DNA of 64,000 nt from a virus: positions 192,001 through 256,000 of the IMG/VR virus record IMGVR_UViG_3300028840_006907. One strand, written 5' to 3'. How positions within the stretch are numbered: the stretch's first letter is position 1; every line of letters begins with the position of its first letter. Shown piece after piece: positions 4,525 to 64,000 of this stretch. The notes beneath the pieces are model-generated. The model worked only from the letters and a program-made list of their open reading frames with translations, had not been told where the DNA came from and did not search any database. Made by a program: the position numbers and the translations under genes.

Positions 4525-4526
4525 GC

Positions 4527-44338: not shown

Positions 44339-44416
44339 AAGTCACTGCTAGTTTGGCTTTAATTAGCATTTTACCTAAATCTTTTCCGTCAACAAAGAAA
44401 TAAGTCATGAATTTAG

Positions 44417-44638: not shown

Positions 44639-44658
44639 AAATTTTAAGAAAAGTCCTT

Positions 44659-44934: not shown

Positions 44935-45089
44935 AATATACCGCCTTTTGAATGAGTGTGAATAAGTTAATAGTGAGTCCTTTATAAATATTATACCAGT
45001 CTACCCTTGAAACTCTCCCAAAAAAATTTTAATAAAAAATGTGATGGTTTGTAATTCGTTGAGAAGTATAAAATTATAAAACAAAAAAA

Positions 45090-45428: not shown

Positions 45429-45429
45429 T

Positions 45430-45813: not shown

Positions 45814-45828
45814 TGAGTAATATATTTT

Positions 45829-46470: not shown

Positions 46471-46474
46471 AATA

Positions 46475-46999: not shown

Positions 47000-47025
47000 A
47001 GGGATATATCCTTATTTTAGATTTT

Positions 47026-47925
47026 CTAATACAACGTTCTACTTATTTGATGAGTGCGTTGACCCTCTTTTATTACAGAAATTAATGCTTTTAAATCATA
47101 GTCTTTATCACCAACATGACCTGTTTCATGGTCGGTTAAACAGATGCCTGCAGTAATAACGTGGTGACTTTGATCTTTAGTAACAATAGTATTAAATTTC
47201 TCTCCATCGATTTCATATGTTACATAAATATGATCCGATTTTTCATCACTGCTCAGGTATTTACCTCCGGCAAATTCTATATCACGTTGAATCTTTGTTT
47301 TTTTCTTTTCTTCAAGTGCTCGTTCACGTTCTTCTTTGATTTTTAAATCGATTTTGTATTTTATGTTAAAAGCAATTTTCTCCTCCAATGTCAGACCAGA
47401 GAATTTTAATTTAGATGGGTCTCTGAATTCTTTCAGGGACTCATTAAGATAATCTGTAATCATCGGATCGGCTGACATATCCATTGAATCAAACCAGATA
47501 TTAGCTCCGTCAAATCGGCATAGACATTTAGAAAATGTTGTAACCATATCATCGAAAAGAAGAACTGGGTATAATTCTGATACTTTTAATCCCAGATGAT
47601 TACTCTTTATCGGGATCCCAAGATAAAAATCTTTCTTTTTATGTACTAAAACCATTCTTATCTTTGGTAAATATTTAAGATAAGATTGAATCTCATCTAT
47701 TTCCGCTAAATCTATTGCTTCAGCCCGTTTATTATCAAGTGCTTTGAATTTGTACCATCCCGGTTCTGTTTTCGGGATGTTTAAGTAATGAATAATTCCT
47801 TGAATACGGATAATGATTCGGTCATTATAATACACAGGAGAAATGATAGTCTTTTCAGTCATCATTTCTTCCTGTTTCCCTATTTTATCAATAAGGTTTA
47901 AAATATTATCTTTTCTTACGGTCAA
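47026..47925 (-). CDS. hypothetical protein
   Basis: 299-aa ORF between JAMM and Ro60-like genes. Confidence 0.5.
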   Translation of the reverse strand: MTVRKDNILNLIDKIGKQEEMMTEKTIISPVYYNDRIIIRIQGIIHYLNIPKTEPGWYKFKALDNKRAEAIDLAEIDEIQSYLKYLPKIRMVLVHKKKDFYLGIPIKSNHLGLKVSELYPVLLFDDMVTTFSKCLCRFDGANIWFDSMDMSADPMITDYLNESLKEFRDPSKLKFSGLTLEEKIAFNIKYKIDLKIKEERERALEEKKKTKIQRDIEFAGGKYLSSDEKSDHIYVTYEIDGEKFNTIVTKDQSHHVITAGICLTDHETGHVGDKDYDLKALISVIKEGQRTHQISRTLY

Positions 47926-49462
47926 AAGATTTCCTCACGGGTAAAGGTGTATCCATGATCTCATATAGAAGATCGAGTTTTGATTTTCTGGATAGCAATG
48001 GAATTAATCCAGGCAATCCATAGTAATCGCTACCTTCAGGTTCATAGTAATCGAAAGGTATTCTAGCTTGTTTTAAATACATGCTGAATTCTTTACGACT
48101 CCATGAACTTGGAATGTAAATAATAGTAATAGTAGGAGTCACATTAAATTTTTTAACATAATTATCCCATATCTCAACGAAAAATGGATTATTATTTTCA
48201 CCTTCATCAGTGACCACTATTATCTGTTCTACATAATAGTTTTTTCTAATAAGGTAATCTAATGCTATACCTATGGAAGTCCCACCATTACTTTTTACAG
48301 GTCTGAAAGCCCTTTCCCAGGCAGACATATTCGGTTCATTAGCTGTGATCTCTCTGGCCATTGTATCAAAAGTAATAGCATAGAGAGGAGCTTCTGTAGC
48401 ACCTGAAATAAGAGCCGCAACATTTTTTCCGACTTCGATGGCTTGAGTCATAGAACCTGATTTATCGATAAAGACTGCAGTAGGTACTTTTATAACACCT
48501 TTCTTTTTAATTTGCTGATCTGCAATTTCATCGAGGATCTTTTGAGATTCCTCATTTTTGATCCGACCTGTTTTCTTTGCTTCTTTGGATTTTAAAGCTG
48601 ATACATTTTTAGCTTTTTTAGCTTTTTCCAATTTAGCCGTAATCAATGTTTTTGTATCCTCATTGTCCATGGCACCACGTTCTTCTAGGGAAGCATAGTT
48701 ATTAATAACTTCCTGTGGAGACATAGCATTGATTAGAGCAATCAGAATTGTAGGAGTGATTTGATCAACCAAACCTACAGCCACCGTATAAGGTACTTTA
48801 TGTTCTATAATCAGCTTTGCCACTTCAGTCGGATTATCAGCTTGTGCTATTTTTTCGAAAACATTTAATTTACTGTCCGTAGGACGTTCATTTCCGAAAA
48901 GAATCTTCTGAGCACGTTCACTAGGTGCTATACGAAGAGTAGCATATAATCCTTTAAGATCTTTTGGACTTTTTAGGGCAATAGCATCAAAAAGATCGTT
49001 GTTGGTTTCAATATATTGAAGAAATTTCTCAACATCCCTTTTAAAGGCAGTAGGAATATTTTTGTAAAGACCTACATTTTTTTCTTCAATTTTTACTTCA
49101 TCGATCATTTTTTTCTTCATTTTTATTTTTTTGCCCGTTTTATTTCTGATCTTTATTTTTTTACCTTTAATAAAACCGACCACACGTCTTTTAAGATATA
49201 CAGGTATTTCCCTGAAGAGGGCTAGCCCAACTTCACGGTTGTCAAGAAATTCATCAACAATAAGTGAACCGATGAATACTTCTTTATGATCCCGAATATC
49301 TCCATTCTTGTAGTACCAGCTTCCAAGGTGGGCATAAAACAGCGGATCTGCTTTTTGTAATTCAAGATGGGTATTTTTTAATTTATCTAGGTCCCGGTGA
49401 GGGCAACTCAGAAATGAGTTAAGCATGTTAACTCTGATATCATTTTCGTTAGCTTGGTTCAT
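47906..49462 (-). CDS. rsr: Ro60/Rsr-like RNA-binding protein (TROVE-like N-terminal region plus vWA domain)
   Basis: C-terminal vWA with MIDAS residues FIDKSGSM, NGGTSIG, VVTDEGEN (same arrangement as Ro60 DVSASM / AGGTD / FTDNE as recalled); N-terminal ~320 aa with ILIAL helix; next to tRNA-mimic RNAs. Confidence 0.6.
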   Translation of the reverse strand: MNQANENDIRVNMLNSFLSCPHRDLDKLKNTHLELQKADPLFYAHLGSWYYKNGDIRDHKEVFIGSLIVDEFLDNREVGLALFREIPVYLKRRVVGFIKGKKIKIRNKTGKKIKMKKKMIDEVKIEEKNVGLYKNIPTAFKRDVEKFLQYIETNNDLFDAIALKSPKDLKGLYATLRIAPSERAQKILFGNERPTDSKLNVFEKIAQADNPTEVAKLIIEHKVPYTVAVGLVDQITPTILIALINAMSPQEVINNYASLEERGAMDNEDTKTLITAKLEKAKKAKNVSALKSKEAKKTGRIKNEESQKILDEIADQQIKKKGVIKVPTAVFIDKSGSMTQAIEVGKNVAALISGATEAPLYAITFDTMAREITANEPNMSAWERAFRPVKSNGGTSIGIALDYLIRKNYYVEQIIVVTDEGENNNPFFVEIWDNYVKKFNVTPTITIIYIPSSWSRKEFSMYLKQARIPFDYYEPEGSDYYGLPGLIPLLSRKSKLDLLYEIMDTPLPVRKSFDRKKR

Positions 49463-49483
49463 AATATCTCATCCTCCTTATGT

Positions 49484-49750
49484 TCAGGTTTCAATTTTTC
49501 CGAAAGTAGCATTTGGTCTAACTGTAATGTTACCATTTTTATGGTGTTCAACAACTAATTCAGCAAATTCTGATGCTGGTCTATCATAATGATCTACTAA
49601 AGCCAATTTAATTTGTTCACCAGTTATATTATCCGATGTGATCTCGGTTCCTGGTTCAATCCCGAGTTGTTCCCATCTGTCTTCTGGGAAAAGATCTTTG
49701 AGATTAATATCTTCAGTTTGACCATCATACATTATATGGACTTCACTCAT
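49484..49750 (-). CDS. hypothetical small protein (first gene of the Ro60-like operon)
   Basis: ATG at 49750 with RBS AAGGAGG; promoter-like motif upstream; 88 aa. Confidence 0.5.
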   Translation of the reverse strand: MSEVHIMYDGQTEDINLKDLFPEDRWEQLGIEPGTEITSDNITGEQIKLALVDHYDRPASEFAELVVEHHKNGNITVRPNATFGKIET

Positions 49751-49790
49751 ATGAGCCTCCTTGTAATAAGTTAAAAAAAGAGTCCCGTAT

Positions 49791-49806
49791 ATTATACGAC
49801 ACGAGA
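49791..49806 (-). promoter_or_regulatory. promoter-like motif TCTCGTGTCGTATAAT (minus strand)
   Basis: Copy of recurrent element ~35 nt upstream of the minus-strand operon RBS. Confidence 0.45.
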
Positions 49807-49888
49807 TTAACATTTCATTAAGTAAAAAATTGGGTAGAATATAAATTCTTGTGTGTCATCATGGTAAATAACTTTTTTAAAAAAATTA

Positions 49889-49917
49889 TTGACACACTTA
49901 AAATTTATGGTTATATT
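49889..49917 (+). promoter_or_regulatory. sigma70-like promoter candidate for the tRNA / structured RNA locus
   Basis: TTGACA, 17-nt spacer, TATATT, ~40 nt upstream of tRNA. Confidence 0.4.
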
Positions 49918-49955
49918 ATTGACAGTTCTGCACTCTAACTTTTGATGCTTACATA

Positions 49956-50032
49956 GAGAAAATAGCTCAGTTGGTCAGAGCGCGAGATTTAGGTTCTTGA
50001 AGTCTTCGGTTCAATTCCGAATTTTCTTACCA
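49956..50032 (+). tRNA. tRNA, predicted anticodon UAG (Leu-type) with short variable loop and encoded CCA
   Basis: Cloverleaf: acceptor GAGAAAA/TTTTCTT, D arm GCTC-AGTTGGTCA-GAGC, anticodon arm CGAGA-TTTAGGT-TCTTG, 5-nt variable loop, T arm TTCGG-TTCAATT-CCGAA, A73, CCA. Confidence 0.75.
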
Positions 50033-50249
50033 TAAAATTAGCACCTTCAACTTGTGCAGAACTACTTAAACCAAGAAATAAAAGTCAGACATTCTAATTA
50101 TTAGGGCGTACATGGCGTTAAAACCATGCTTCCTGCAGAAATCAGGAAGCAATCTCTGGGCCAAGGCTCAGGGGCGCACTGATGACTTATGTCTGACTTA
50201 ATATAGATTGTAAAGTGTTGTAAAATAAATTTGATCTTTGAAAATTATA

Positions 50250-50429
50250 GGATAATGCCTTCTAACCTGTTGGGCTTACAAATTTTACTGGTTCGACTCC
50301 AGGTTCCGCCTCTCGGTCCTTTTGTAAAGATTGTAAAGGATCAGGAGGCGGAACAAGCCGGGTGGTCTGGCGATTGAATGCAAATCAATTTATTTGAAAT
50401 TAACGCTCTTTTAACTTGGGCATTTATCC
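50250..50429 (+). ncRNA. tRNA-mimic structured RNA unit 1 (Y RNA / YrlA-like candidate)
   Basis: Outer stem GGATAATGCC/GGCATTTATCC then T-run; T-arm-like GGTTCGACTCC; long hairpin GTTCCGCCTC...GAGGCGGAAC; D-arm-like GCCGGGTGGTCTGGC; hairpin ATTGA-ATGCAAA-TCAAT. Confidence 0.55.
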
Positions 50430-50477
50430 TTTTTTATAGTAATTTATAATTTTATATAAAGTGATCTTTGAAAATAT

Positions 50478-50660
50478 GAGGTAAGTGCCTCCTAACATAA
50501 CGGGCTTACAAATTAATAGGGTTCAACTCCCTGTTCCCCCGCCTAAGTCTTTGTCATATAATGATTAAGATTTGGGCGGGGGAACGAGCTGGGTGGTTCA
50601 GCAATCAACGTTTAATTGATGAAAAACATTTTTACGCTCTTTTAACTTAGGCACTTACTC
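50478..50660 (+). ncRNA. tRNA-mimic structured RNA unit 2 (Y RNA / YrlA-like candidate)
   Basis: Outer stem GAGGTAAGTGCC/GGCACTTACTC then T-run; T-arm-like GGGTTCAACTCCC; long hairpin GTTCCCCCGCC...GGCGGGGGAAC; D-arm-like GCTGGGTGGTTCAGC; hairpin ATCAA-CGTTTAA-TTGAT. Confidence 0.55.
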
Positions 50661-50683
50661 TTTTTATTAAATTGAAATTACAA

Positions 50684-50855
50684 GGAGCACCTTCTAACCT
50701 GTTGGGCTTACAAGTTATTCGGGGTTCAAATCCCTGTCCCGGCACTAGGTTGATTCCCTAAAAGTCAACCCAGTGCCGGGATAGCCAAATTGGTAAAGGC
50801 GACTATATTGAACATAGTAAACAAAACTATCTACGCTCTTTTAACTTGGGTGCTC
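50684..50855 (+). ncRNA. tRNA-mimic structured RNA unit 3 (Y RNA / YrlA-like candidate)
   Basis: Outer stem GGAGCACC/GGTGCTC; T-arm-like GGGGTTCAAATCCC; long hairpin TCCCGGCACT...AGTGCCGGGA; D-arm-like GCCAAATTGGTAAAGGC; hairpin ACTAT-ATTGAAC-ATAGT. Confidence 0.55.
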
Positions 50856-50899
50856 TTTATATATTTCTCGCAAAAGGAATACAGGGTGAAACAGGAGTA

Positions 50900-50940
50900 T
50901 AGGGATTAAGAAGAAATTTTTGATCCCTATTTTATTTTTT
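50900..50940 (+). terminator. terminator candidate after RNA locus
   Basis: TAGGGAT ... ATCCCTA stem with 16-nt loop followed by TTTTATTTTTT. Confidence 0.35.
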
Positions 50941-50955
50941 CCCGGATTTTCCCTA

Positions 50956-50972
50956 CCTTCATGTCGTATAAT
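50956..50972 (+). promoter_or_regulatory. promoter-like motif CCTTCATGTCGTATAAT
   Basis: 16/17 identical to the element at 18192-18208; ~45 nt upstream of ATG 51016. Confidence 0.45.
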
Positions 50973-51015
50973 TATTAGATAAAGATTTTCTAAACATTTT
51001 ATTAGGTAATTAATT

Positions 51016-53643
51016 ATGACATGTAAAATTTGTAAGAGTAATCTTTCTTATACTTTTGATAAATTTCCAGCTTATAAGTTCTGTCCTTGTTGTAACCTTT
51101 ATTTTCAAGAAGAATTTCCACCAAAGATATTTGAAGGTCCTGATGAGAATAACGGGCATGGTCCCGGTACAGGTCATTTAATGTCTGAGGATGAAAAGGA
51201 AATAAATAAAAATTTCGCTAATGTTCTCTATGATATGTTTATTCCTCGAACTCTTCTAGATATAGGTTGTAAATACCCCTATTTTATTAGTGTGTTAAAA
51301 GATAAAATAGATGTATTAGGAATTGATCCTATTTCAGAGATCTTGAAATATGGAGAAGAATTGGGTGTCTCTGTAATTCGTGATGATTTTGAAGATATGA
51401 ATATTACTCCTTTAAAAAATAAATTCGATTTAATAACTTTGATACATACTTTCGAACATTTTTATAGCCCAATAGAGACCATGAAAAAGATAATCGAATG
51501 TCTTACTCATAGAGGAGTGCTTTTAATAAGAATTCCAAACATAGATATTGAAGGTATAGAAAGAGATTTTACTGATCATCATGTTCAAATCCATCCCTTT
51601 ATATATTCAACACAAGCAATGTATCGAATCGCTCAAAAATTTGATTGTGAAATTTTTAGGGTCGATGATATTATTGGATATGGCCAGAGCGATTTTTATT
51701 TAAGGAAGAAAAGGGACCATCTTTCTTTATCGGTTTGTATGATTGTAAAAGATGAGGAAAAGAATGTTTCTGATTGTTTGGAGAGTATAAAAGATGTAGC
51801 TGATGAAATCATAGTTGTGGATACCGGATCTATAGATAATACCAAAGAAATAGTATCCAAATATACAACAAAGATATATGACTTTAAATGGATTGATGAC
51901 TTTTCTGCTGCTAGAAATCACTCTTTAAGTAAGGCAACGGGTGACTTTATTTTATGGCTTGATGCTGATGATATTGTAGAAAATCCAGAAAAGATTAATG
52001 AAATATTAAAAAATGATGATGCTAAGATATTTAATTTTAATATTAAATATGGAAATGATGTCTTTAGTCAGGCTAGACTATTTAGGAATTTTTATAATAT
52101 AAAATTTTCTGGTAGAGTTCATGAATATCCTGTAATCGATAATTTATATATAAAAGATACTGAAGTTAATGTAATTCATAAAACCGAAAAACATTCAACA
52201 GAAAACCGTTCTGATAGAAATCTCCGTCTCCTTAAAAAAGAATACGAAGATAATCCGAACAATTCCCGGACACTTTTTTACCTGGCAAGTGCTTATAAAG
52301 AACTTACTCGTTGGGATGAAGCTATAGATTTTTATCGAAAATATTTAACTATTTCTATCTGGAAAGATGAGAGATGGATGGCTCAAAAGAATATTGGATG
52401 TATTCTTTCCTGGAATAGAAAATATGAAGAAGCCATTGAAGAATTGAAGAAGGCTATTGAAATAGATGATCGATGGGCTGAGTCATATTATTATATAGCT
52501 GAGTGTTATTTCTATTTAAAAAACCCTCAAGAATGTATAAACTGGTCTTTAAAAGCTATTGAGAAAAAGATGCCCGAATCACCTCTTTGGAAAGAGATCC
52601 CAATTTATAATGACGCACCATACCGTTATCTCTTTGCTTCTTATGGTTCTTTAGGTGATTTTGAGAAAGCATTGCATTATTGTAAGATAGCATCAGAAAA
52701 AGTTCCTGAGGATGAATGGCTTAAGGAAAGAGTCACTTATTTTGAGAATGCTACAAAAGGAGTTCCTGTTGTAGTCGAATGTAATCGGTGGGGGGCTTTG
52801 GGTGATTGTTTAATGACAACTGCATCTTTACGTGCCATTAAGCATAAGATTCCGGGTTGTTTTATAAGATATGTCACCCATCCTAGTATGTTCCCGATCC
52901 TTGAAGGGAATAAGTTTATAGATGAACTTGTATCAGAATCTAAATCTGAGAACTCAGAAAAGGTTTATTTCTCATATCCTGACAGTAAATCTCCTATTAA
53001 AGATGAAGGTTATCCTAATAAGCCTTTGAATCGCCATTTAGTACGTATATTCGCAGAATGTGCTGGTTTAAAAGAATTTGATAATCTAAAGATGGAGTGT
53101 ACTCTTACAAAAGATGAGGAGAAATCAGGTCAGTCATTGAGATCTCGATTTAAGAAATATGTGACTCTTCATATCCATTCGGGTTGGTCTGAGTATAAGG
53201 ATTGGTATAATGATCGTTGGGAGACTGTTGTAGATGAGTTATTTAAAAGAGGTTACGTGGTTGTTCAGCTAGGCCATAAAGATGAGGGTCTCTTAGTTGG
53301 TACTGTGGATTATAGAGGCCATACTATAAAAGAAGCTATCTCTGCAATAAAATATGCTGATATTCATTTAGGAGTGGATTCATTTACAAACCATGCCTCG
53401 GCTACTGTGGGGACTCCTGCAGTTATTTTATTTGGGTCTACTTCTCCAACCGGTTCCGGGTATGATCAGAATATAAACCTTTATAAAGATTTGAAATGTC
53501 AGCCTTGTTATAAAGAATATGCATGGTCTAAGGATAATAAAGGAAAATGTCCTTATAATAAACTATGTATGGATCAGATCCTGGTTCAGGAAGTATTAGA
53601 CGGTTTTATGAGATTAGAAAAAAAATTATTTATTGATGGATAA
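51016..53643 (+). CDS. multidomain glycosyltransferase (Zn-ribbon, methyltransferase-like, GT2, TPR, GT9-like)
   Basis: N-terminal CxxC pairs; LLDIGC methyltransferase-like motif; GT2 core SVCMIVKDEE...EIIVVDTGSIDNT...LWLDADD; TPR-like helices; C-terminal GT9-type LGVDSFTNHASATVGTPAVILFG. Confidence 0.7.
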   Translation: MTCKICKSNLSYTFDKFPAYKFCPCCNLYFQEEFPPKIFEGPDENNGHGPGTGHLMSEDEKEINKNFANVLYDMFIPRTLLDIGCKYPYFISVLKDKIDVLGIDPISEILKYGEELGVSVIRDDFEDMNITPLKNKFDLITLIHTFEHFYSPIETMKKIIECLTHRGVLLIRIPNIDIEGIERDFTDHHVQIHPFIYSTQAMYRIAQKFDCEIFRVDDIIGYGQSDFYLRKKRDHLSLSVCMIVKDEEKNVSDCLESIKDVADEIIVVDTGSIDNTKEIVSKYTTKIYDFKWIDDFSAARNHSLSKATGDFILWLDADDIVENPEKINEILKNDDAKIFNFNIKYGNDVFSQARLFRNFYNIKFSGRVHEYPVIDNLYIKDTEVNVIHKTEKHSTENRSDRNLRLLKKEYEDNPNNSRTLFYLASAYKELTRWDEAIDFYRKYLTISIWKDERWMAQKNIGCILSWNRKYEEAIEELKKAIEIDDRWAESYYYIAECYFYLKNPQECINWSLKAIEKKMPESPLWKEIPIYNDAPYRYLFASYGSLGDFEKALHYCKIASEKVPEDEWLKERVTYFENATKGVPVVVECNRWGALGDCLMTTASLRAIKHKIPGCFIRYVTHPSMFPILEGNKFIDELVSESKSENSEKVYFSYPDSKSPIKDEGYPNKPLNRHLVRIFAECAGLKEFDNLKMECTLTKDEEKSGQSLRSRFKKYVTLHIHSGWSEYKDWYNDRWETVVDELFKRGYVVVQLGHKDEGLLVGTVDYRGHTIKEAISAIKYADIHLGVDSFTNHASATVGTPAVILFGSTSPTGSGYDQNINLYKDLKCQPCYKEYAWSKDNKGKCPYNKLCMDQILVQEVLDGFMRLEKKLFIDG

Positions 53644-53940
53644 ACGCCATGTAGCAATTATTCCTTTTGGGTTCTCTATAGATACGTTTGTAGTAAATTG
53701 AGAAAGGAGTTCAAAAGGAGTGGTACAAATTACTTCTTTAAGTTCATGCTTATCTATAAGGACTGGTCCATAAGCTACGAAAAAGCAATTAATTATCAAT
53801 TCTATTAGATCAGTTGAGTTAAATTCCTCGATCCATTCTCTCATAAAATCACACCAGGCTTGAGGTGTTGGGGTATCGTCATGTTTTTCAAAGAGTTTTG
53901 CTAATTCCGTATAATCTTGATTTGTGTAAGTGATGCTCAT
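53626..53940 (-). CDS. hypothetical protein
   Basis: 104-aa minus-strand ORF convergent with glycosyltransferase. Confidence 0.35.
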   Translation of the reverse strand: MSITYTNQDYTELAKLFEKHDDTPTPQAWCDFMREWIEEFNSTDLIELIINCFFVAYGPVLIDKHELKEVICTTPFELLSQFTTNVSIENPKGIIATWRLSINK

Positions 53941-54250
53941 CTGGTATTCCTTTCTTTACGTCTTCAATTCTAACCTCTATAAATATTATACCAGGAATTG
54001 GGTGAAAAACTGCCAAAATAATTTCGGCCTTTTTGTAACCTCATAGATATCAATAGATTACCACAGATAAAAATTTATCCTATTATTTATATCTTATTAT
54101 CCATTTTAATAATGTTTTAATACTATCTAGCTCCAATAAAATCTTCTATTCTAATAAATGTTCTTAGTGGGACATATCCGAGGATCAGAATTTACTTTAA
54201 GTGCTACCTTAGGTAAGATGATCTAACCGGCAAAAAGCTAAGGAGTTACG

Positions 54251-57200
54251 ATGGCCAAGACAAAAAGGAAATGGATTGAGCTGGATTGGTACAATCCCAA
54301 TGCCTTACGTGCACAAGACATACCTTACGATCAAACCGAAAGTGTAAAAGATGCTATAGATAGAGCTGCCTCTGGAGTTCTCGGTCCGACGGGGACCACG
54401 GGTTCGACCGGTTCAACAGGTTCGACGGGTCCAACGGGTCCGACGGGAGCCACGGGTGCGACGGGAGCAGGAATCCAGGGTGAAACCGGAGTCGCTGGAG
54501 TTCAAGGAGCTACCGGAACCGGTGGTGGTGGAGATACTGGTGTCCAGGGTGAGACCGGTTTACCCGGAGCCACAGGAATCCAAGGTACAACCGGTATCCA
54601 GGGAACTACAGGAATCCAAGGTGAAACTGGAATCCAGGGACATACAGGTACAGTTGGAACAACGGGTGTTCAAGGAGAAACCGGTTCTCAGGGTACTACT
54701 GGAATCCAGGGAGAAACTGGAGTAAAAGGTGAAACTGGTATTCAAGGTCAAACCGGTATAGCTGGTGGAGCAGGATTTCCAGGAGCAACTGGAGTCCAGG
54801 GCGAAACCGGAGTCCAAGGAACTACTGGGGTTCAAGGGGAAACCGGGGTTCAAGGAACCACAGGAGTAGCCGGAGCAACCGGAGTCCAGGGAACTACTGG
54901 CGTCCAGGGAACTACTGGCATCCAAGGTGAAACGGGTGTCCAGGGAGATACTGGAGTTGGTGCCACTGGAATCCAAGGAACCACAGGTATCCAGGGTCAA
55001 ACCGGTGTTCAAGGTATCACCGGAGCTTATGGTGGTCCTCCTGGAGAAACTGGTGTCAAGGGAGAAACCGGAGTACAGGGGGCTACTGGAATCCAAGGTC
55101 TTCAAGGATTGCAGGGAACCAAAGGTGAGACCGGAACACAAGGTATTCAAGGCCAGACCGGAGTTCAGGGAGAAACTGGAGTTCAAGGGCAGACTGGTAC
55201 AGGTGCTCCAGGAGCCACTGGAGTTCAAGGGCAGACTGGTATCCAGGGAACCACTGGAATAGGTTTAGGTTCAACAGGAGTAGCGGGAGCAACTGGAATT
55301 CAAGGTACTACCGGAGTTCAAGGTAGGACTGGAGTCCAAGGATTTACCGGAGCTGCTGGTTTAGGTGAAACTGGTATCCAAGGAGCTACCGGAGTCCAGG
55401 GTGCCACAGGTATTCAAGGGACTACTGGTGCAGGAATCCAAGGAGCCACAGGTATTAGTGGTGACACGGGAGTTCAAGGAGCCACAGGAATTAGAGGTAC
55501 TACTGGTGCAGGAATCCAAGGAGCCACGGGGGTTCAGGGCATTCAAGGTCAAACTGGAGCCCAGGGCGAAACCGGAGTCCAGGGTGAAACCGGAATAGAA
55601 GGTTCTCAATTTGCAGGATTTAATTATAAAGCAAAAACAGACAATCAATCTGATACAGATCCTGGTATAGGAAATTTAAAGTGGAGTGCTGTAGCTCAAG
55701 TCACATCTAGTGAGCTTTATGTGGATGATGCTGACGTTAATTCTACGGATCTCAGTAATTTTTACCTCACTTTAAAAGCTGCCGACTCTTTACGTATTGT
55801 TCGTATGGAAGATCCTTCTCAGTATCAGATTTTTAATATAACAAACGTTACTGATAGAACCGGATGGTTCCGTTTATCTGTTACACCTGTTGTTTCAGGT
55901 GGTTCGACTTTTAGTTTAAATGATAATATCATACTGATATTTAGTATATCAGGTCCTAGAGGTCAGACCGGAGTAAAAGGTGAGACTGGAATTCAAGGAA
56001 CTACAGGTGTTGCCGGAGCCACAGGAGTCCAAGGTCAAACTGGAATTCAGGGTCAAACTGGAATCCAGGGCATACAGGGCCAGACTGGAATTCAAGGACA
56101 AACTGGTATTCAAGGTCAAACAGGAATCCAAGGTCAGACAGGTGTTGGCGCTCAGGGTGCTACTGGTGTAGCTGGTCAAACCGGGGTCCAGGGAGAAACT
56201 GGGATACAAGGTCAGACTGGTGCAGGAATCCAGGGAACTACTGGTGTTCAAGGCGTTCAAGGATTAACAGGTGTGCAAGGCCAGACAGGTGCCGGAATCC
56301 AAGGTGAAACCGGAGTCCAGGGTACTCAAGGTTTAACCGGTATACAGGGTCAGACAGGTGCTGGAATCCAAGGAGAGACTGGTGTTCAGGGAAACACTGG
56401 GGCTTTTGGTGGTCCTCCCGGAGAAACTGGTGTTCAGGGAGAAACTGGTGCACAAGGTTTAACTGGAGTCCAAGGTCAAACCGGAGCAGGTATTCAGGGA
56501 GCCACTGGTATTCAAGGAGTTACTGGAGTTCAAGGCCAAACCGGTGCTGGTATTCAAGGAGTCACTGGAATCCAAGGACAAACTGGTATACAGGGTCAGA
56601 CAGGAGTAGCAGGTCAGACCGGAGTCCAAGGAATACAAGGCCAGACAGGAGTAGCAGGTCAGACCGGAGTTCAAGGAATTCAAGGACAAACCGGAATAGC
56701 AGGTCAGACCGGAGTTCAGGGTATACAAGGTCAAACTGGAATTCAAGGGCAGACTGGTGCTGGAATCCAAGGTACAACTGGAGTAGCCGGAGCTACAGGA
56801 GTTCAGGGAATTCAAGGTCAAACAGGAGCTGGAATCCAAGGTACAACTGGAGTCCAGGGAACTACAGGAGTTCAAGGTGAAACTGGTACTGGTATTCAGG
56901 GAGAAACTGGTACGCAAGGTATTCAGGGTCAAACCGGAATTCAGGGACAGACTGGGATTCAAGGTAATACTGGTGTAAAAGGTGAAACCGGAGTTCAGGG
57001 TTTTCCAGGTCCTCAGGGTACGAAAGGTGATACTGGTGCTCAAGGTATTCAAGGTGAGACAGGAACTCAAGGAATTCAGGGCCAAACTGGAGTAGCTGGA
57101 GAAACTGGAGTTCAGGGTCAAACGGGTACTCAAGGAATTCAGGGTCAGACTGGTGTAGCTGGTGCAACTGGTGCGGGAATTCAAGGTCAAACTGGTGTTC

Positions 57201-60200
57201 AAGGAATCCAAGGTCAGACTGGAATCCAGGGGCAAACTGGAGTCCAGGGTGAAACAGGTATAGAAGGATCTTTATGGGCTGGATTTAGTTATAATGCCAA
57301 GACTGATGATCAGTCAGATACAGATCCTGGTACAGGGAATCTTAAATGGAGTACTGTTGCTCAGGTAAATGCGGGTGAACTTTATGTAGATGATACTGAT
57401 CAATATTCCATAGATTTAAGTAATTTTTATCTTACGTTAAAGGCTGGTGATTCTCTTCGAATAATTCGTCAGGAAGACCCTTCTCAATATCAAATTTATA
57501 ATATAACAAATGTTACAGATAGAACAGGTTGGTTCCGTCTTAGTGTGACCTATGTTACTTCAGGTGGATCTACTTTCAGTCTTAATGATAATATTATTCT
57601 TGTTTTTGTTAAAGCTGGAATTCAAGGTCAGACAGGTGCCCAAGGTATTCAAGGTCAAACAGGAGTCCAAGGAATTCAAGGACAGACTGGAGTTCAAGGA
57701 GCCACAGGTACCCAAGGAATTCAGGGGCCACAAGGCCAGATAGGTCTTCAAGGTACTACTGGGGTCCAAGGTGAAACCGGAGTCCAGGGCACACAAGGTC
57801 AGACGGGTATCCAGGGTACAACAGGTGCCGGGATTCAGGGTCAAACCGGAGTCCAGGGAATTCAGGGTCAAACCGGTATTCAAGGTCAAACAGGAGCAGG
57901 TATTCAGGGAGCTACTGGTATTGCTGGTATAGATGGTCAGACTGGAATCCAGGGTGAAACCGGAATTCAGGGCCAAACTGGAGCTGGTATTCAGGGAGCT
58001 ACTGGTATTGCTGGTATAGATGGTCAGACTGGAATCCAGGGTGAAACCGGAATTCAGGGCCAAACTGGAGCTGGAATCCAAGGTGAAACCGGTATCCAAG
58101 GAATTCAAGGATTAACAGGTATTCAAGGTACAACTGGTGCTGGCATTCAGGGAGAAACTGGAGTACAGGGTACACAAGGTCAAACAGGTGTTCAAGGTCA
58201 AACAGGTGCCGGAATTCAGGGTGAAACCGGAGTCCAGGGCACACAAGGTCAAACCGGTATTCAGGGTCAAACTGGCGCTGGTATCCAAGGTGTGACAGGA
58301 ATTCAAGGAATACAAGGACAAACTGGTATCCAGGGTCAAACGGGTGCCGGAATCCAAGGAGAAACCGGAGTCCAGGGAGAAACAGGAATACAAGGTCAGA
58401 CTGGTGCAGGAATCCAGGGAACTACTGGTGTTCAAGGCGTCCAAGGATTAACAGGTGTCCAGGGTCAAACTGGTGCTGGTATTCAAGGTGAAACCGGAGT
58501 CCAGGGTACTCAAGGTTTAACTGGTATACAGGGTCAGACAGGTGCTGGCATTCAGGGAGAAACCGGGGTCCAGGGAGAAACTGGAATACAAGGTCAGACT
58601 GGTGCAGGGATTCAGGGTGTGACAGGAATTCAAGGTCAAACTGGAGTTCAGGGAACTACAGGAATCCAGGGTCAAACAGGTGTTGGGATCCAGGGTGTGA
58701 CTGGAGTTCAAGGAATTCAAGGTCAAACCGGTATTCAAGGTCAAACCGGTATTCAAGGTGAAACCGGAGTGTCTGGAGCTACAGGTATTCAGGGAATTCA
58801 AGGTCAAACCGGAATCCAGGGTCAGACCGGAGTCCAAGGAGAAACAGGTGTACAAGGTTCTACAGGTGTATTAGGTGATCCTAATTGGATAGATTTTGTA
58901 CCTCAAGCATCTGCTCCTAGTCATCAGGAAGCTCGCCTTTTTTATGATTCAACAGACCATTCATTGAGTTATTACAATGAAGAATCTGATGTTACCCTGA
59001 ATTTAGGTCGTGAATTATATATCAGAGTGTATAATGCAACAGTTTCAACAATAACTAACGGTCAAGTAGTTTATGTCACAGGTGTTGCTGCAGGATACCC
59101 CACAATAGATTTAGCAGATGGTAGTGATTTAACTAAGACTAATAATATAGGAGTGGCTACTCATAATATAGAAGCCTCAACATTTGGTTATATCACATTA
59201 TTTGGATTAGTAAGAGATATTAATACTAATGCTTTCAGTGCTGGTGATGAAGTTTGGTTAAGTGAAAGTACTCCAGGTGGTTACCAGTCTTTTGCAGGTA
59301 CATATGCCGTTAAAATAGGTTATGTTGTTGTTTCAGATACATTAAATGGTTCAATAATGGTAGCTATGGGTGATACGGAAGCTACTATAGCTGGATTGAA
59401 TGATGTAAATCTTACTAGTATCTCTGATGGTCAGTATTTACAATGGGACTCGGATTCTACTAAATGGGTTAATGTTTCTGAAAGTCCTCAAGGTGATACA
59501 GGTATCCAAGGAGCAACTGGAGTTCAAGGAATTCAAGGAACTACAGGAGTTCAAGGAGCAACTGGAGTTCAAGGTATTCAAGGAACCACAGGAATTCAAG
59601 GACAGACCGGAGTTCAGGGTGAAACCGGAATTCAAGGAACTACAGGAGTCCAGGGAGAAACTGGTACTGCAGGAATAGACGGTCAGACAGGAGTTCAGGG
59701 TGAAACCGGTATTGCAGGAATAGATGGTCAGACAGGAGTTCAAGGTACTACCGGAGTTCAGGGAATTCAAGGAACTACAGGAATTCAGGGAGAAACCGGT
59801 ACTGCAGGAATAGACGGTCAGACAGGAGTTCAAGGTGAAACTGGAACTGCAGGAATAGACGGTCAGACAGGAGTTCAAGGTACTACCGGAGTTCAAGGAA
59901 CCACTGGAATTCAAGGTACTACCGGAATTCAGGGAACTACTGGAATTCAGGGAGAAACCGGTACTGCAGGAATAGACGGTCAGACAGGAGTCCAAGGTAC
60001 TACTGGGATTCAGGGGGAAACCGGAGTCCAAGGTACCACAGGGATTCAGGGAGAAACCGGAGTCCAAGGTACTACTGGAATTCAGGGAGAAACTGGTGTT
60101 TTTGGGATTGTCAATTATATCGATTATGAACCTCAAGATACAGTTCCTTCTCATTTAGAAGGTCGTACCTTTTATGACAGTACAGATCATTCTTTAAGTT

Positions 60201-63200
60201 ATTATTTAGATTCAACCGATGTGACTCTTAATATAGGGCAAGAATTTCTTATTCGAGTTGAGAATAAATCGGGTGGAGCAATAGTAGATGGTCAAGCAGT
60301 CTACGTCACTGGTTCTAATGAAGATGTCCCTGAAGTAAATCTAGCAAAAGCAGATTCTTCAAATACTTCTGAGGTTTTAGGTATTGCTACTCAGGTAATT
60401 GAAAATGATACGCAAGGTTATGTTACTTGTGCTGGAAAAATACGTAACTTAAATACTAGTGATTGGACTTCAGGAGATTTACTTTATTTATCTGATAAAA
60501 CTGCTGGTGCATTGACCAATGTTCAACCTTCAGGTAATAGTAATATATTTAGTGTTCATATAGGTCTTGTTATAAGATCACATGCTAGCGATGGTGTTAT
60601 TTTTGCTCACCGTCATATTCCTCATTACCGTCCAGAACAGTTAAGAGATACCACTGCATCTTCTTTAACTGATGGTCAGGTTTTATCTTATGAAAGTAGT
60701 ACAGATAGATGGATAAATAGCACTTTACCTTCAATTACACAATCTATAGATAGAAATGAACCTGGTGGTTTTGTCAACAGAACAGACAGTACAGTAGGTT
60801 TTACTGAATCTACTCGTACTTTGCAAGTTACAACCGCGAGTTCTTATGATATCTATCAGGCTGGTACTAAATATACAATTAATGCAACCGATTCTACTCA
60901 AATTCCTGATACAAATGGTTTGCACTATATTTATTTCGATACCACTAATATGACTGTACAAACGAATCCAGCACTTCAGAATATTCTAGATATCATATAT
61001 GAAAAATCTCTTATTGCTGCGATATATTGGAACTCTTCCGATGATAGAGCTATTATAACCAATGATGAACGTCATGGTATTGTGATGGATGGTAGGACCC
61101 ATTCTTATCTTCATACTACTAGAGGAACTCAATATACATCACCAGGCTTAACTCCTGGAGATTTTGATATTGATGGAGCTGGAAGTAATGACAGTGCCAG
61201 TCAAATGAGTATTTCTGATGGGCAAATACAAGATGAAGATATTTGGTTTGAAATTCAAGATGGTAATCCTCAAATATTAGATCCTATAGCTGAAATTCCT
61301 GTTATTTATAAAGATGGTGCAGGAGCTGAATGGAAAATAAAATATTGGACAGCTTCATGGGCATCTGCAACCTCTTATCCTACTGGTACTATAATAAGAG
61401 AGAGTAATTCTTATTTTAGATCTAGTGGAGGAACTTCAGGTGGTGCTCTTCCTGCTTTTTCTGCAAATCGTGAACCAGGTGATACTATTGTTGATAATAC
61501 AATTACGTGGACAAATGTTGGTTCTCCATTGTCTCCTGTGATTAATTTTGTGGGAGGTAATTATAGATTAGCATATAATCAGTTTACTGGTGGGGCATGG
61601 CAACAAACCGAAGTAACAAATGGTAATTATGTTCTTACTCATATATTTGCTACGACTGATATTTTTCATCCTATTATGGCTATTCAAGGTGAGAATGAGT
61701 ATGGTAATGTTGCTGCAGCTAGAGCAGGAGCTTTAACAGAACTAGATAGTATTGTATTGTCTGGATTGGATTTTCCTGAATCAATATTTCTTGCTACAGT
61801 TATTTTTCAGACTAATAATACTTATACTAATCAAGTAAAAGCTCGAACTATCTCAACTGATACAGGTGATGATTTTATAGATTGGAGATTTTCTCAAATC
61901 AATGCAGCCTCAACAGGTGATCAAGGTCCTCAAGGAGAAACTGGTGTTCAAGGGGTACAGGGTGAAACCGGAGTACAGGGTGAAACCGGAGTAGCAGGAG
62001 CAACTGGTGTTCAAGGAATACAAGGCCAGACTGGAATCCAGGGAGAAACTGGAATTCAAGGAGCCACAGGTGTTGCCGGAGCAACTGGTGTTCAAGGGAT
62101 CCAAGGTCAGACTGGAATCCAAGGAGAAACTGGAATTCAAGGAACTACGGGAGTAGCAGGAGCAACTGGTGTCCAAGGAATCCAAGGAGAAACCGGAATT
62201 CAAGGAGAAACCGGAATTCAAGGAGCAACTGGTGTTCAAGGTATTCAAGGAACAACCGGAGTTCAAGGAATTCAGGGAACCACAGGAGTTCAGGGTGAAA
62301 CCGGAGTCCAAGGAATTCAAGGAACCACAGGAATTCAAGGAATTCAAGGAACCACAGGAGTTCAGGGTGAAACCGGAGTCCAAGGAATTCAAGGAACCAC
62401 AGGAATTCAGGGTGAAACCGGAATTCAAGGAATTCAAGGAACCACAGGAGTTCAGGGAACCACAGGAGTTCAAGGAATACAAGGAACCACAGGAGTTCAG
62501 GGTGAAACCGGAGTCCAAGGAATTCAAGGAACCACAGGAGTTCAGGGAGAAACTGGAGTTCAGGGGATCCAGGGTCAGACTGGAATTCAGGGAGAAACTG
62601 GAGTAGCCGGAGCAACTGGAGTACAGGGCCAAACAGGAGTTCAAGGAATCCAAGGTCAAACTGGTATACAGGGAGAAACCGGAGTAGCCGGAGCAACCGG
62701 AGTACAGGGTCAAACAGGAGTTCAAGGAATCCAAGGACAAACTGGTGTTCAAGGAGCAACCGGAGTAGCCGGAGCTACTGGAGTTCAGGGAGAAACAGGA
62801 ATTCAAGGAATCCAAGGACAAACTGGTATACAGGGAGAAACCGGGGTAGCCGGAGCAACCGGAGTACAGGGCCAAACAGGAGTTCAAGGAATTCAAGGAA
62901 ATACTGGTGTTCAAGGAGCAACCGGAGTTCAAGGAACTCAAGGAGATACTGGAGTTCAAGGAACAACTGGTGTTCAAGGTGAAACCGGTTTAGAAGCAGC
63001 TTATCATTTCTTTGCGGATCAGTTGGATAGTCCTAATAATGCTGATTGGGCTGTTAATGCTCTTGCTCCAGCTTCTGCTGATACTACAAATAATGCTCTT
63101 GTTGTACGTCGGTTTGATGATACGGATGAAGAAGGTGTAGGATTTATGGTAAATATTCCAACAGGAAGGACAAATATAGTATTTGGATTTAAGAGTAGGG

Positions 63201-63487
63201 CTGAAACAGCTCCTGGATCGGCGCATAATGTAAAACCAAAGGTATATGTCAGGGAAATACCTGATAATACTACTGTGGAAAGTTGGTCTTCTGGTTATGA
63301 TTTAAATGCTTTAAGTATGCCAACAAATACCTATTTTCAATATGATTCTCAATCTGTAGCTTTTACCGCTCTTGATATTACAGGTGGGAGATTGGCTCAA
63401 TTTGAAGTAACAAGAGATCATACGGGTGTAACTCCTGATTTAACTGGTGACTGGGACTTGCTAGAGCTTAATGTTTCATTTACCTAG
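54251..63487 (+). CDS. giant collagen-like fiber protein (3078 aa) with duplicated globular modules
   Basis: RBS AAGGAG before ATG 54251; six proline-free GXY tracts separated by two pairs of duplicated non-collagen modules and unique C-terminal domains. Confidence 0.85.
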   Translation: MAKTKRKWIELDWYNPNALRAQDIPYDQTESVKDAIDRAASGVLGPTGTTGSTGSTGSTGPTGPTGATGATGAGIQGETGVAGVQGATGTGGGGDTGVQGETGLPGATGIQGTTGIQGTTGIQGETGIQGHTGTVGTTGVQGETGSQGTTGIQGETGVKGETGIQGQTGIAGGAGFPGATGVQGETGVQGTTGVQGETGVQGTTGVAGATGVQGTTGVQGTTGIQGETGVQGDTGVGATGIQGTTGIQGQTGVQGITGAYGGPPGETGVKGETGVQGATGIQGLQGLQGTKGETGTQGIQGQTGVQGETGVQGQTGTGAPGATGVQGQTGIQGTTGIGLGSTGVAGATGIQGTTGVQGRTGVQGFTGAAGLGETGIQGATGVQGATGIQGTTGAGIQGATGISGDTGVQGATGIRGTTGAGIQGATGVQGIQGQTGAQGETGVQGETGIEGSQFAGFNYKAKTDNQSDTDPGIGNLKWSAVAQVTSSELYVDDADVNSTDLSNFYLTLKAADSLRIVRMEDPSQYQIFNITNVTDRTGWFRLSVTPVVSGGSTFSLNDNIILIFSISGPRGQTGVKGETGIQGTTGVAGATGVQGQTGIQGQTGIQGIQGQTGIQGQTGIQGQTGIQGQTGVGAQGATGVAGQTGVQGETGIQGQTGAGIQGTTGVQGVQGLTGVQGQTGAGIQGETGVQGTQGLTGIQGQTGAGIQGETGVQGNTGAFGGPPGETGVQGETGAQGLTGVQGQTGAGIQGATGIQGVTGVQGQTGAGIQGVTGIQGQTGIQGQTGVAGQTGVQGIQGQTGVAGQTGVQGIQGQTGIAGQTGVQGIQGQTGIQGQTGAGIQGTTGVAGATGVQGIQGQTGAGIQGTTGVQGTTGVQGETGTGIQGETGTQGIQGQTGIQGQTGIQGNTGVKGETGVQGFPGPQGTKGDTGAQGIQGETGTQGIQGQTGVAGETGVQGQTGTQGIQGQTGVAGATGAGIQGQTGVQGIQGQTGIQGQTGVQGETGIEGSLWAGFSYNAKTDDQSDTDPGTGNLKWSTVAQVNAGELYVDDTDQYSIDLSNFYLTLKAGDSLRIIRQEDPSQYQIYNITNVTDRTGWFRLSVTYVTSGGSTFSLNDNIILVFVKAGIQGQTGAQGIQGQTGVQGIQGQTGVQGATGTQGIQGPQGQIGLQGTTGVQGETGVQGTQGQTGIQGTTGAGIQGQTGVQGIQGQTGIQGQTGAGIQGATGIAGIDGQTGIQGETGIQGQTGAGIQGATGIAGIDGQTGIQGETGIQGQTGAGIQGETGIQGIQGLTGIQGTTGAGIQGETGVQGTQGQTGVQGQTGAGIQGETGVQGTQGQTGIQGQTGAGIQGVTGIQGIQGQTGIQGQTGAGIQGETGVQGETGIQGQTGAGIQGTTGVQGVQGLTGVQGQTGAGIQGETGVQGTQGLTGIQGQTGAGIQGETGVQGETGIQGQTGAGIQGVTGIQGQTGVQGTTGIQGQTGVGIQGVTGVQGIQGQTGIQGQTGIQGETGVSGATGIQGIQGQTGIQGQTGVQGETGVQGSTGVLGDPNWIDFVPQASAPSHQEARLFYDSTDHSLSYYNEESDVTLNLGRELYIRVYNATVSTITNGQVVYVTGVAAGYPTIDLADGSDLTKTNNIGVATHNIEASTFGYITLFGLVRDINTNAFSAGDEVWLSESTPGGYQSFAGTYAVKIGYVVVSDTLNGSIMVAMGDTEATIAGLNDVNLTSISDGQYLQWDSDSTKWVNVSESPQGDTGIQGATGVQGIQGTTGVQGATGVQGIQGTTGIQGQTGVQGETGIQGTTGVQGETGTAGIDGQTGVQGETGIAGIDGQTGVQGTTGVQGIQGTTGIQGETGTAGIDGQTGVQGETGTAGIDGQTGVQGTTGVQGTTGIQGTTGIQGTTGIQGETGTAGIDGQTGVQGTTGIQGETGVQGTTGIQGETGVQGTTGIQGETGVFGIVNYIDYEPQDTVPSHLEGRTFYDSTDHSLSYYLDSTDVTLNIGQEFLIRVENKSGGAIVDGQAVYVTGSNEDVPEVNLAKADSSNTSEVLGIATQVIENDTQGYVTCAGKIRNLNTSDWTSGDLLYLSDKTAGALTNVQPSGNSNIFSVHIGLVIRSHASDGVIFAHRHIPHYRPEQLRDTTASSLTDGQVLSYESSTDRWINSTLPSITQSIDRNEPGGFVNRTDSTVGFTESTRTLQVTTASSYDIYQAGTKYTINATDSTQIPDTNGLHYIYFDTTNMTVQTNPALQNILDIIYEKSLIAAIYWNSSDDRAIITNDERHGIVMDGRTHSYLHTTRGTQYTSPGLTPGDFDIDGAGSNDSASQMSISDGQIQDEDIWFEIQDGNPQILDPIAEIPVIYKDGAGAEWKIKYWTASWASATSYPTGTIIRESNSYFRSSGGTSGGALPAFSANREPGDTIVDNTITWTNVGSPLSPVINFVGGNYRLAYNQFTGGAWQQTEVTNGNYVLTHIFATTDIFHPIMAIQGENEYGNVAAARAGALTELDSIVLSGLDFPESIFLATVIFQTNNTYTNQVKARTISTDTGDDFIDWRFSQINAASTGDQGPQGETGVQGVQGETGVQGETGVAGATGVQGIQGQTGIQGETGIQGATGVAGATGVQGIQGQTGIQGETGIQGTTGVAGATGVQGIQGETGIQGETGIQGATGVQGIQGTTGVQGIQGTTGVQGETGVQGIQGTTGIQGIQGTTGVQGETGVQGIQGTTGIQGETGIQGIQGTTGVQGTTGVQGIQGTTGVQGETGVQGIQGTTGVQGETGVQGIQGQTGIQGETGVAGATGVQGQTGVQGIQGQTGIQGETGVAGATGVQGQTGVQGIQGQTGVQGATGVAGATGVQGETGIQGIQGQTGIQGETGVAGATGVQGQTGVQGIQGNTGVQGATGVQGTQGDTGVQGTTGVQGETGLEAAYHFFADQLDSPNNADWAVNALAPASADTTNNALVVRRFDDTDEEGVGFMVNIPTGRTNIVFGFKSRAETAPGSAHNVKPKVYVREIPDNTTVESWSSGYDLNALSMPTNTYFQYDSQSVAFTALDITGGRLAQFEVTRDHTGVTPDLTGDWDLLELNVSFT
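54385..55595 (+). repeat. collagen-like GXY triplet tract (first of six in this gene)
   Basis: Uninterrupted Gly every third codon (GPTGTTGSTG...GETGIEG); further tracts about 55961-57260, 57614-58875, 59491-60100, 61921-62990. Confidence 0.85.
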
Positions 63488-63498: not shown

Positions 63499-64000
63499 AT
63501 GCCCGAATGGGGAATAGATACCGCAGGTACTACAACAACGACGCCGAATTGGTGTCGTGCTATGGGTGGAACCTCTCCCAATATAGACAATATGCTTTTA
63601 AAAAGTGTGTCTATATATGTAGGTTCTACTCATACTCAACAAATCCGATTAGCAGTTTATTCTGGTGGTAATTTAACGACAGGTCCTGATGGTGCAACTC
63701 TCGTTTATGATGCTGGGGTGACTTCTGGCACGGCTTTAAACACATGGTTAACTATAAATATTCCTACTGAAGTAATTCTTCCTAAAAATGCTGTGACATG
63801 GGTAGCATTTAGAAATAATGGTGGTTATATAATCCATTATTATGGTACCAGTCCAGCCGGAAATGATTTTCAAACTGCTCGTGGTAGATATAGCTCTACT
63901 GTTCTTGATGGAGATGAAACTTCAGCTTTTCCTTCTACATGGCCTTCTGATGGTGGAGCTTTTGCTGCTTTTTGGTATTCTACATATATTATTTATCAAA
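63499..64000 (+). CDS. hypothetical protein (partial; continues past window end)
   Basis: Open frame from ATG 63499 after RBS GAAGGAG with no stop to window end; Gly/Thr/Ser-rich. Confidence 0.45.
   Translation, partial: MPEWGIDTAGTTTTTPNWCRAMGGTSPNIDNMLLKSVSIYVGSTHTQQIRLAVYSGGNLTTGPDGATLVYDAGVTSGTALNTWLTINIPTEVILPKNAVTWVAFRNNGGYIIHYYGTSPAGNDFQTARGRYSSTVLDGDETSAFPSTWPSDGGAFAAFWYSTYIIYQ

Follow-up and report, generated by a model that had tools for sequence, protein, structure and literature searches.

Why should a huge phage carry a 9.2-kb gene for a protein made largely of collagen repeats? The question is raised by a 64,000-nucleotide stretch of viral DNA (positions 192,001 to 256,000 of IMG/VR virus record IMGVR_UViG_3300028840_006907; hereafter the window), in which one uninterrupted open reading frame (ORF), running from 54251 to 63487 on the + strand, encodes a collagen-like modular protein of 3078 amino acids (aa), here called the giant. 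A preliminary description, made from the letters alone, had singled it out as a collagen-like giant phage protein assembled from modules, a claim that is borne out by the intact frame and by matches to the Pfam family PF01391 (Collagen). Our results suggest that the giant is probably a subunit of a homotrimeric, collagen-like adhesion fibre of the tail-fibre type. Its non-collagen modules are homologous to phage tail-module proteins, the labels of those records being mostly predictions, and its gene is directly followed by one for a Laminin-G (LamG) protein, a predicted chaperone or adhesin, in the position expected of a tail-fibre partner.

The giant gene is real, and its source is a huge phage of roughly 470 kb. 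The frame stays open across 9.2 kb and through all module junctions, a Shine-Dalgarno sequence (AAGGAG, 54240-54245, +) lies 5 nt ahead of the ATG and makes a strong ribosome-binding site, and an identical 3078-aa product is encoded at 246251-255487 of NCBI contig JAEORW010000001.1 (GCA_016840655.1; 469,617 bp). The window also holds phage genes for an intein-bearing ribonucleotide reductase, an NAD-dependent ligase, a RecD2-type helicase, a clamp loader and a large terminase, the last having its best relatives in an uncultured phage of 485 kb (35% identity) and in the 309-kb Tunturiibacter phage Tunturi_5. A megablast search of 42276-52000 against 50,697 phage genomes gave no nucleotide-level match. 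The GC content is 45-48% over the giant gene compared with ~33% elsewhere in the window, a rise that fits the load of Gly, Gln and Thr codons and is not by itself a sign of foreign origin.

Layout of the giant and its collagen tracts

Using a scripted parse for Gly-X-Y, we resolved the protein into a short N-terminal segment (N), five collagen tracts (col) and six globular modules, in the order N-col1-A1-col2-A2-col3-B1-col4-B2-C-col5-D. The features are given below; lengths in nm are those that a triple helix would have at the established collagen rise of 0.286 nm per residue.

54251..63487, +, whole ORF from an ORF scan: collagen-like modular fibre protein, 3078 codons, single frame, no interruption
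54251..54373, +, N-terminal non-collagen segment of 41 aa, the presumed virion-attachment end
54374..55609, +, collagen tract 1 (aa 42-453): 412 aa, ~118 nm, 9 one-residue-deletion interruptions
55610..55951, +, module A1 (aa 454-567): 114 aa, unannotated fibre repeat domain
55952..57274, +, collagen tract 2 (aa 568-1008): 441 aa, ~126 nm, 11 interruptions
57275..57616, +, module A2 (aa 1009-1122): 82% identical to A1
57617..58882, +, collagen tract 3 (aa 1123-1544): 422 aa, ~121 nm, 13 interruptions, mostly G-A-G-I-Q-G
58883..59491, +, module B1 (aa 1545-1747): 203 aa, cement/decoration-protein-like beta domain followed by a conserved C-terminal motif of ~40 aa
59492..60112, +, collagen tract 4 (aa 1748-1954): 207 aa, ~59 nm, without interruption
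60113..~60730, +, module B2 (aa 1955-~2160): match to PF09956 (Phage_cement_2), fold like trimeric capsid cement proteins
60731..61915, +, module C (aa ~2161-2555): ~395 aa, predicted structure with pLDDT mostly >90
61916..62995, +, collagen tract 5 (aa 2556-2915): 360 aa, ~103 nm, without interruption
62996..63484, +, module D (aa 2916-3078): 163 aa, C-terminal beta-sandwich like CBM6/35/36, the presumed distal tip

The tracts comprise 1842 residues and 593 clean triplets, in agreement with the more than 1800 collagen residues noted before, although six tracts had then been counted where the parse finds five. Membership of the collagen family is supported by PF01391 matches to tract 5 (E 1.4e-62, 207.8 bits) and tract 1 (E 1.6e-54, 182 bits), compared with a cut-off of 27.2 bits. 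All 33 interruptions, which are one-residue deletions mostly of the form G-A-G-I-Q-G, fall in the first three tracts. Only 13 prolines occur in the 593 triplets, several of them inside a recurring GGPPGETG motif; position Y is occupied by Thr (44%) or Gln (40%), and position X mostly by Val or Ile.

Such proline-free chemistry had been thought unusual for a phage protein, an impression that finds no support in a comparison with 30 related fibre proteins of at least 30 triplets each. Their median proline fraction is 7%, with seven of the proteins under 3%, and Y is as a rule Thr or Gln; the proline-poor Thr/Gln chemistry is ordinary in this company. Thr-containing triplets are, moreover, over-represented in bacterial and viral collagens (PMC11923368). 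The size, also described as unusual, is at the high end and not unique. Proteins with module A reach 3117, 3202 and 4106 aa, and a 62-kb locus (IMGVR_UViG_3300029288_000185) holds an ORF of at least 2440 aa at 2-7324, 2307 aa of which are Gly-X-Y. In view of these other giants, the 3078-aa protein appears as an extreme case of a known kind of phage fibre. The giant of the 62-kb locus has Ser or Pro at X, has Gln or Thr at Y, and bears a small beta domain at its C terminus; it is cut by the end of the locus and sits a few kb upstream of the same phage's own collagen-D fibre gene.

Globular modules and the duplication of A

A word-indexed homologue search with module A gave no match. A profile scan of 1.84 billion representatives, on the other hand, found the module in 2376 protein clusters at E<=1e-3, usually in two to seven copies per protein. 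At least 30 aa of Gly-X-Y are present in 61 of the 150 top module-A proteins, Peptidase_S74 in some, and Pelagibacter phage HTVC010P has three copies of the module in its gp22 ("tail protein"). No significant Pfam match was obtained for the module or its relatives: the best E was 0.0085 over 20 members, and each weak match was confined to a single member. In the PDB, sequence profiles of modules A, B-C and D had no meaningful match, and no solved structure matches A. Of the globular modules, for which the preliminary description had proposed a profile comparison as a check, B2 matches PF09956, and A and D have neither a family nor a PDB sequence match.

Modules C and D are globular parts that had not been described before. 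Module C has ~60 homologues at 30-48% identity, in proteins of 450-1030 aa where it takes varied positions, sometimes beside B; proteins of this size bearing B and C lie on phage-sized contigs. Annotated tail fibres with B or C include those of Pseudomonas phage Rollin, Roseobacter CRP-6 and Nitrincola 1M3-16, and both modules are found in BFVD entries named as "tail fiber-like", Peptidase_S74 and collagen proteins. The predicted fold of C has no structural neighbour in the PDB and matches predicted "tail fiber-like", Peptidase_S74 and collagen-containing proteins of uncultured Caudovirales. Residues that are near-invariant in 44 C homologues include E2273, R2274, H2275, H2284, H2288, D2328, E2329, D2330, N2443, W2450 and E2510, and this cluster of His, Asp and Glu points to a putative metal or catalytic site. 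An insert of ~65 aa in module C (roughly aa 2363-2428) is absent from many homologues.

The two pairs of modules, A and B, lie where they had been placed from the letters. It had further been proposed that the gene grew by segmental copying, which holds for the block made of collagen, A and collagen. The self-comparison suggested at that time aligns 54575-57011 with 56294-58805 at 64% DNA identity, and A1 and A2 are identical at 82% of amino acids and 76% of nucleotides, compared with at most 45% amino acid identity between either of them and any other A module. With ~65% of synonymous sites differing, a dS of ~1.5 and a dN/dS of 0.095, an old intragenic duplication kept under purifying selection is supported. 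A recent duplication of A1/A2, or one produced by assembly, was rejected on account of the same dS. B1 and B2, in contrast, are 40-42% identical in amino acids, with no detectable DNA similarity, and the B module of an unrelated metagenomic protein (P0002) is 48.5% and 42.8% identical to B1 and B2, slightly above the 42% between the two. Each copy being marginally closer to this third module, B may have entered twice by module exchange, and shuffling of modules from phage to phage would explain the pair equally well as segmental copying.

Module D, its Laminin-G partner genes and a glycosyltransferase

The fold of module D is a beta-sandwich of the CBM6/35/36 kind. At the sequence level it cannot be assigned to CBM6/35/36, having no match in Pfam, NCBIfam, PHROG or the PDB. 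Scanning IMG/VR with a D alignment, we found 63 loci on contigs of 5-379 kb, and D is always C-terminal. The proteins that end in D measure 175-1825 aa; some contain A, B or C, seven contain at least 100 aa of collagen, one (at locus L045) repeats the C-collagen-D order of the giant's last third, and others, of 175-250 aa, consist of D only. Sinorhizobium phage Phosso (469 kb) provides the only match to D in a cultured phage (5359-6486, 32% identity). In this jumbo phage, D is the C terminus of a 375-aa hypothetical protein.

The N termini of the D proteins fall into several motif classes (for example, MA.IKISDLPP..., ...VRQSGDTRDKK... and ...KRS..PGK.P....L..GE.A.N...), which, recognizing them from sequence, we take to be tail-fibre anchors. 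In one lineage of small phages (seven loci), the gene directly 5′ of the D fibre is homologous to "tail adaptor" proteins, and at a further locus (L005) the gene in this position has an N terminus of tail-fibre type. What follows D is far more constant. Sequence beyond D is long enough to judge at 57 loci, and at 54 of these D is followed next, on the same strand and in most cases at no more than 0.5 kb, by a gene whose product has a C-terminal Laminin_G_3 (ConA-like) domain, homologous to that of the gene downstream of the giant:

63499..64000, +, first downstream Laminin_G_3 gene, truncated where the window stops: 385 aa long on the source contig, starting 11 nt past the giant stop, with its own GAAGGAG

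Four LamG paralogues, of 385, 740, 763 and 407 aa, follow the giant in the source contig (19249-26709 of the extracted locus, L069). They share a C-terminal domain at 41-60% identity, differ in their N-terminal parts, and match PHROGs labelled as virion structural protein. The run is broken by a 171-aa gene of the adenylyl/cytidylyltransferase family, and two of the four paralogues also have Toxin_R_bind_N- or pentraxin-like lectin domains.

A fibre gene followed by a chaperone or adhesin gene is the arrangement of T4 gp37-gp38, lambda stf-tfa, Mu S-U and P2 H-G. Like these pairs, the D proteins combine a conserved C-terminal fibre domain with a same-strand partner gene directly after it, and D and LamG behave as a cassette attached to different N-terminal anchors (54 of 57 loci). 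Unlike them, the giant has as its partner a Laminin_G_3 protein, a ConA-like lectin and not a homologue of Tfa or gp38, present here as four paralogues, and contact between the two products is a prediction. The combination of varied N-terminal anchors with a constant D-LamG pair fits an exchangeable distal cassette.

Upstream of the giant lies a gene that may bear on the collagen tracts themselves:

51016..53643, +, 875-aa protein with methyltransferase, GT2, TPR and GT9 glycosyltransferase parts, a candidate fibre modifier, 608 nt upstream of the giant

From its domains, the 875-aa protein looks like a protein glycosyltransferase/methylase rather than an enzyme that modifies DNA or lipopolysaccharide. 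The GT2-TPR part is nearest to SunS-type peptide glycosyltransferases (TIGR04195, E 3.9e-22, a score of 78.7 bits being far below the equivalog cut-off of 350) and is 31% identical to SPbeta yolJ; the GT9 part is weakly similar to the Aah/TibC protein heptosyltransferases. Homologues of the GT2-TPR part were found within 10 kb at four of the seven collagen-bearing D loci compared with one of the 44 without collagen (Fisher p 6.6e-4), a comparison of dereplicated loci that are few and possibly related, with statistics that ignore kinship. The four fibres so linked have Thr at 38-89% of Y positions. A (Gly-Pro-Thr)10 peptide, a random coil when unmodified, can fold as a triple helix once its Thr is glycosylated (PMC11923368), and Clostridioides difficile BclA3 is glycosylated by the adjacent SgtA (PMC7157674). 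Thr O-glycosylation of the giant by the 875-aa enzyme seems probable on circumstantial grounds, namely Thr at 44% of Y positions, the nearby gene and its association with collagen fibres. The idea that the nucleotidyltransferase among the LamG genes makes ADP-heptose for the GT9 part was dropped, its matches being only to generic adenylyl/cytidylyltransferase models.

A broader proposal may be put forward tentatively, as one that we regard as possible and still rather doubtful: D and LamG would form a widespread, unrecognized and horizontally exchanged tail-fibre tip cassette, in which D docks interchangeable LamG adhesins (four in this phage), joined to Thr-rich, proline-free collagen rods O-glycosylated by a phage protein glycosyltransferase; the whole would be a sugar-bearing "fishing line" of half a micrometre tipped with several adhesins.

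The proposed fibre and its alternatives

In the model that we favour, three chains of the giant would zip into five triple-helical rods of ~118, 126, 121, 59 and 103 nm, for a total of ~527 nm, each rod being joined to the next by trimeric globular nodes (A, A, B and B-C) that would maintain the register of the chains and probably serve as hinges. Rods 1-3 would be made flexible by their 33 one-residue interruptions, the distal rods 4 and 5 being perfect. The short N terminus (41 aa) would attach to the virion, and the CBM-like D, with at least one of the four LamG proteins, would form the distal host-binding tip, probably for a surface glycan. The nearly proline-free helix would be stabilized by Thr or Gln at Y and Val or Ile at X, and probably by Thr O-glycosylation. 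A fibre of this kind would greatly enlarge the capture radius of the phage. Trimerization, rod lengths and glycosylation are all inferred.

Several points weigh against this model. The N-terminal 41 aa match nothing in Pfam or PHROG and contain no recognizable tail or baseplate attachment domain, and a search of IMG/VR with the first 48 aa gave no relative. Genes for a baseplate or tail sheath were not recognized in the window near the giant gene. Module D, at 37-88% identity, is unusually conserved for a receptor-binding tip, and the "tail fiber" labels in the databases, as said above, are mostly predictions. The link to the glycosyltransferase, besides the kinship ignored by its statistics, is weakened by a 104-aa antisense ORF (53626-53940, −) that lies between the two genes and overlaps the 3′ end of the glycosyltransferase gene by 18 nt, such that the two are not obviously one transcription unit. 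The enzyme could also have a different virion protein as its substrate. A homologue in podovirus MW202524 is found just after the capsid gene, among other glycosyltransferases, and the family thus seems tied to virion glycosylation generally. Finally, the nearest solved folds of module B are those of capsid cement or decoration proteins.

This last point raises the alternative that the giant is a virion fibre mounted on the capsid, on the neck or along the tail (a "hair" or "whisker") and not on the baseplate, with B or another part docking on the capsid lattice. Module B2 does match PF09956 by both family model and fold. Cement and decoration proteins of this family (HFTV1, Pam3 and FCWL1 structures), however, are small stand-alone proteins of 120-170 aa encoded among head genes, unlike B, which sits inside a 3078-aa chain, flanked by collagen, would serve as an in-line node between rods, and in this mid-chain position would make an odd anchor. 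The same fold is also found in lactococcal receptor-binding proteins, TssK and tail fibres, B homologues occur in proteins labelled as tail fibre, and the D fibres described above start with what we read as tail-fibre motifs, next to a tail adaptor gene. No capsid gene adjoins the giant gene. We consider a mount on the capsid, on the neck or along the tail unlikely.

A separate question is whether the gene, real in itself, owes its length or repeat order to collagen repeats that were collapsed, expanded or mis-joined in assembly. The giant gene yields 90 overlapping tandem-repeat rows, 97 repeated 41-mers and 13 repeated 77-mers, and many D homologues end up on very short contigs, which suggests that assemblies break in such repeats. 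A second, independently assembled close relative was not found: a metagenome scan with B2-C returned only one distant relative, the GTDB representative genomes lack a 45-mer taken from the gene, and the exact protein is absent from a cluster table of 15 billion proteins. However, the longest exact repeat in the gene measures only 89 nt, higher-order repeats are 70-94% identical and not identical, and the A1 and A2 blocks differ at most of their silent sites with the protein kept. In addition, the frame is open through each junction, each of the globular modules makes up a whole domain that has homologues in other proteins, and the NCBI contig encodes the identical product. An artefact of this kind is quite improbable.

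It is also improbable that the giant acts outside the virion, as a secreted or cell-surface protein that, for example, remodels the host envelope or aggregates cells during infection. Such a role would suit a gene whose neighbours encode a glycosyltransferase, four lectin-like LamG proteins and a nucleotidyltransferase, and not recognized tail proteins. Yet members of all four module families are found among phage structural genes, the LamG proteins match virion structural PHROGs, and inspection by eye, with no formal prediction made, showed no obvious signal peptide in the N terminus.

The least probable reading inverts the fibre, making D and LamG the virion-proximal anchor and the variable N-terminal part the free end: it would account for a conserved D on proteins otherwise variable in length and content, for D-only proteins and for an N terminus without relatives, but it is hard to reconcile with the carbohydrate-binding-module fold of D and with other D proteins that begin with several classes of what we read as tail-fibre anchors, as expected if D and LamG are an exchangeable distal cassette. 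Collagen fibres are, moreover, known to nucleate from a C-terminal domain (PMC11923368).

Elsewhere in the window, a second giant ORF of 2337 aa (35040-42053, +) begins 4 nt past the terminase-like gene. It encodes an N-terminal PSII_BNR/Ycf48-like beta-propeller, ~400 aa of collagen with Val/Ile and Gln/Thr, and several repeated modules of ~110 aa; a GAFGGPPGETG motif is common to both giants. Its collagen DNA is 65-70% identical to that of the 3078-aa giant, which could allow sequence exchange between them. The gene for the large subunit of ribonucleotide reductase (12003-16085, +) is split by an intein with a LAGLIDADG homing endonuclease. Between divergent gene blocks, 49813-51016 is a 1.2-kb region without an ORF of at least 60 aa, which contains a tRNA-Leu(TAG) at 49956-50032 and, after it, a set of three direct repeats of ~200-230 nt, each with a T-arm-like GGTTCRAMTCC motif and a long hairpin. 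Alignment of the three copies shows 10 of 31 predicted pairs changed on both sides; ARAGORN and Rfam made no call on these units.

Relation to known collagen-like fibres

Collagen-like phage tail-fibre and minor tail proteins are represented by PHROGs 6320, 5073, 1806 and 30509 and by the side-tail-fibre collagens EPclA-D of Escherichia coli prophages (PMC3368898). The giant resembles them in that Gly-X-Y segments are flanked by beta-rich fibre domains in what would be a trimeric fibre, in the Thr/Gln-rich, proline-poor composition that many of them have, and in being a mosaic that reflects module exchange. It differs in scale, with five tracts, 1842 residues and a predicted ~527 nm compared with the tens to few hundred collagen residues typical of those fibres, and in its modules A, C and D, which belong to no curated family.

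A closer parallel in plan is offered by BclA and BclA3 of Bacillus and Clostridioides (PMC7157674; cited in PMC11923368), which likewise have a short N-terminal anchor, a stalk rich in Gly-X-Thr, a C-terminal beta-sandwich and an adjacent glycosyltransferase. That of BclA O-glycosylates collagen Thr, as the giant's is predicted to do. Those proteins, however, contain a single tract, no longer than a few hundred residues, and are located on spores, and the giant does not end in a C1q/TNF-like trimeric domain of the BclA type, the fold of D matching CBM6/35/36 instead. The combination of a collagen stalk with lectin-like heads that bind glycans multivalently also recalls collectins, C1q and ficolins; these are far shorter, are built with a coiled-coil neck and heads of the C-type-lectin or C1q type, and share no homology with the giant.

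Collagen-like segments in phage fibres are already well known. Less expected are the three large domain families (A, C and D) outside curated libraries that the giant brings out, the strict pairing of D with LamG, and the association with a glycosyltransferase. If the proposed model is true, the giant would be among the longest phage fibres inferred from sequence, a triple helix of ~0.5 micrometre that would exceed the T4 long tail fibre (~145 nm) severalfold. The pairing of D with LamG could help to annotate receptor-binding proteins in metagenomic phages, and the link between Thr-rich collagen fibres and the glycosyltransferase provides a testable case of virion glycosylation outside mycobacteriophages. 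Proline-free and possibly sugar-stabilized triple helices of defined length may also be of interest as biomaterials. For huge phages themselves, a fibre of this length would illustrate a way in which the capture radius may be enlarged.

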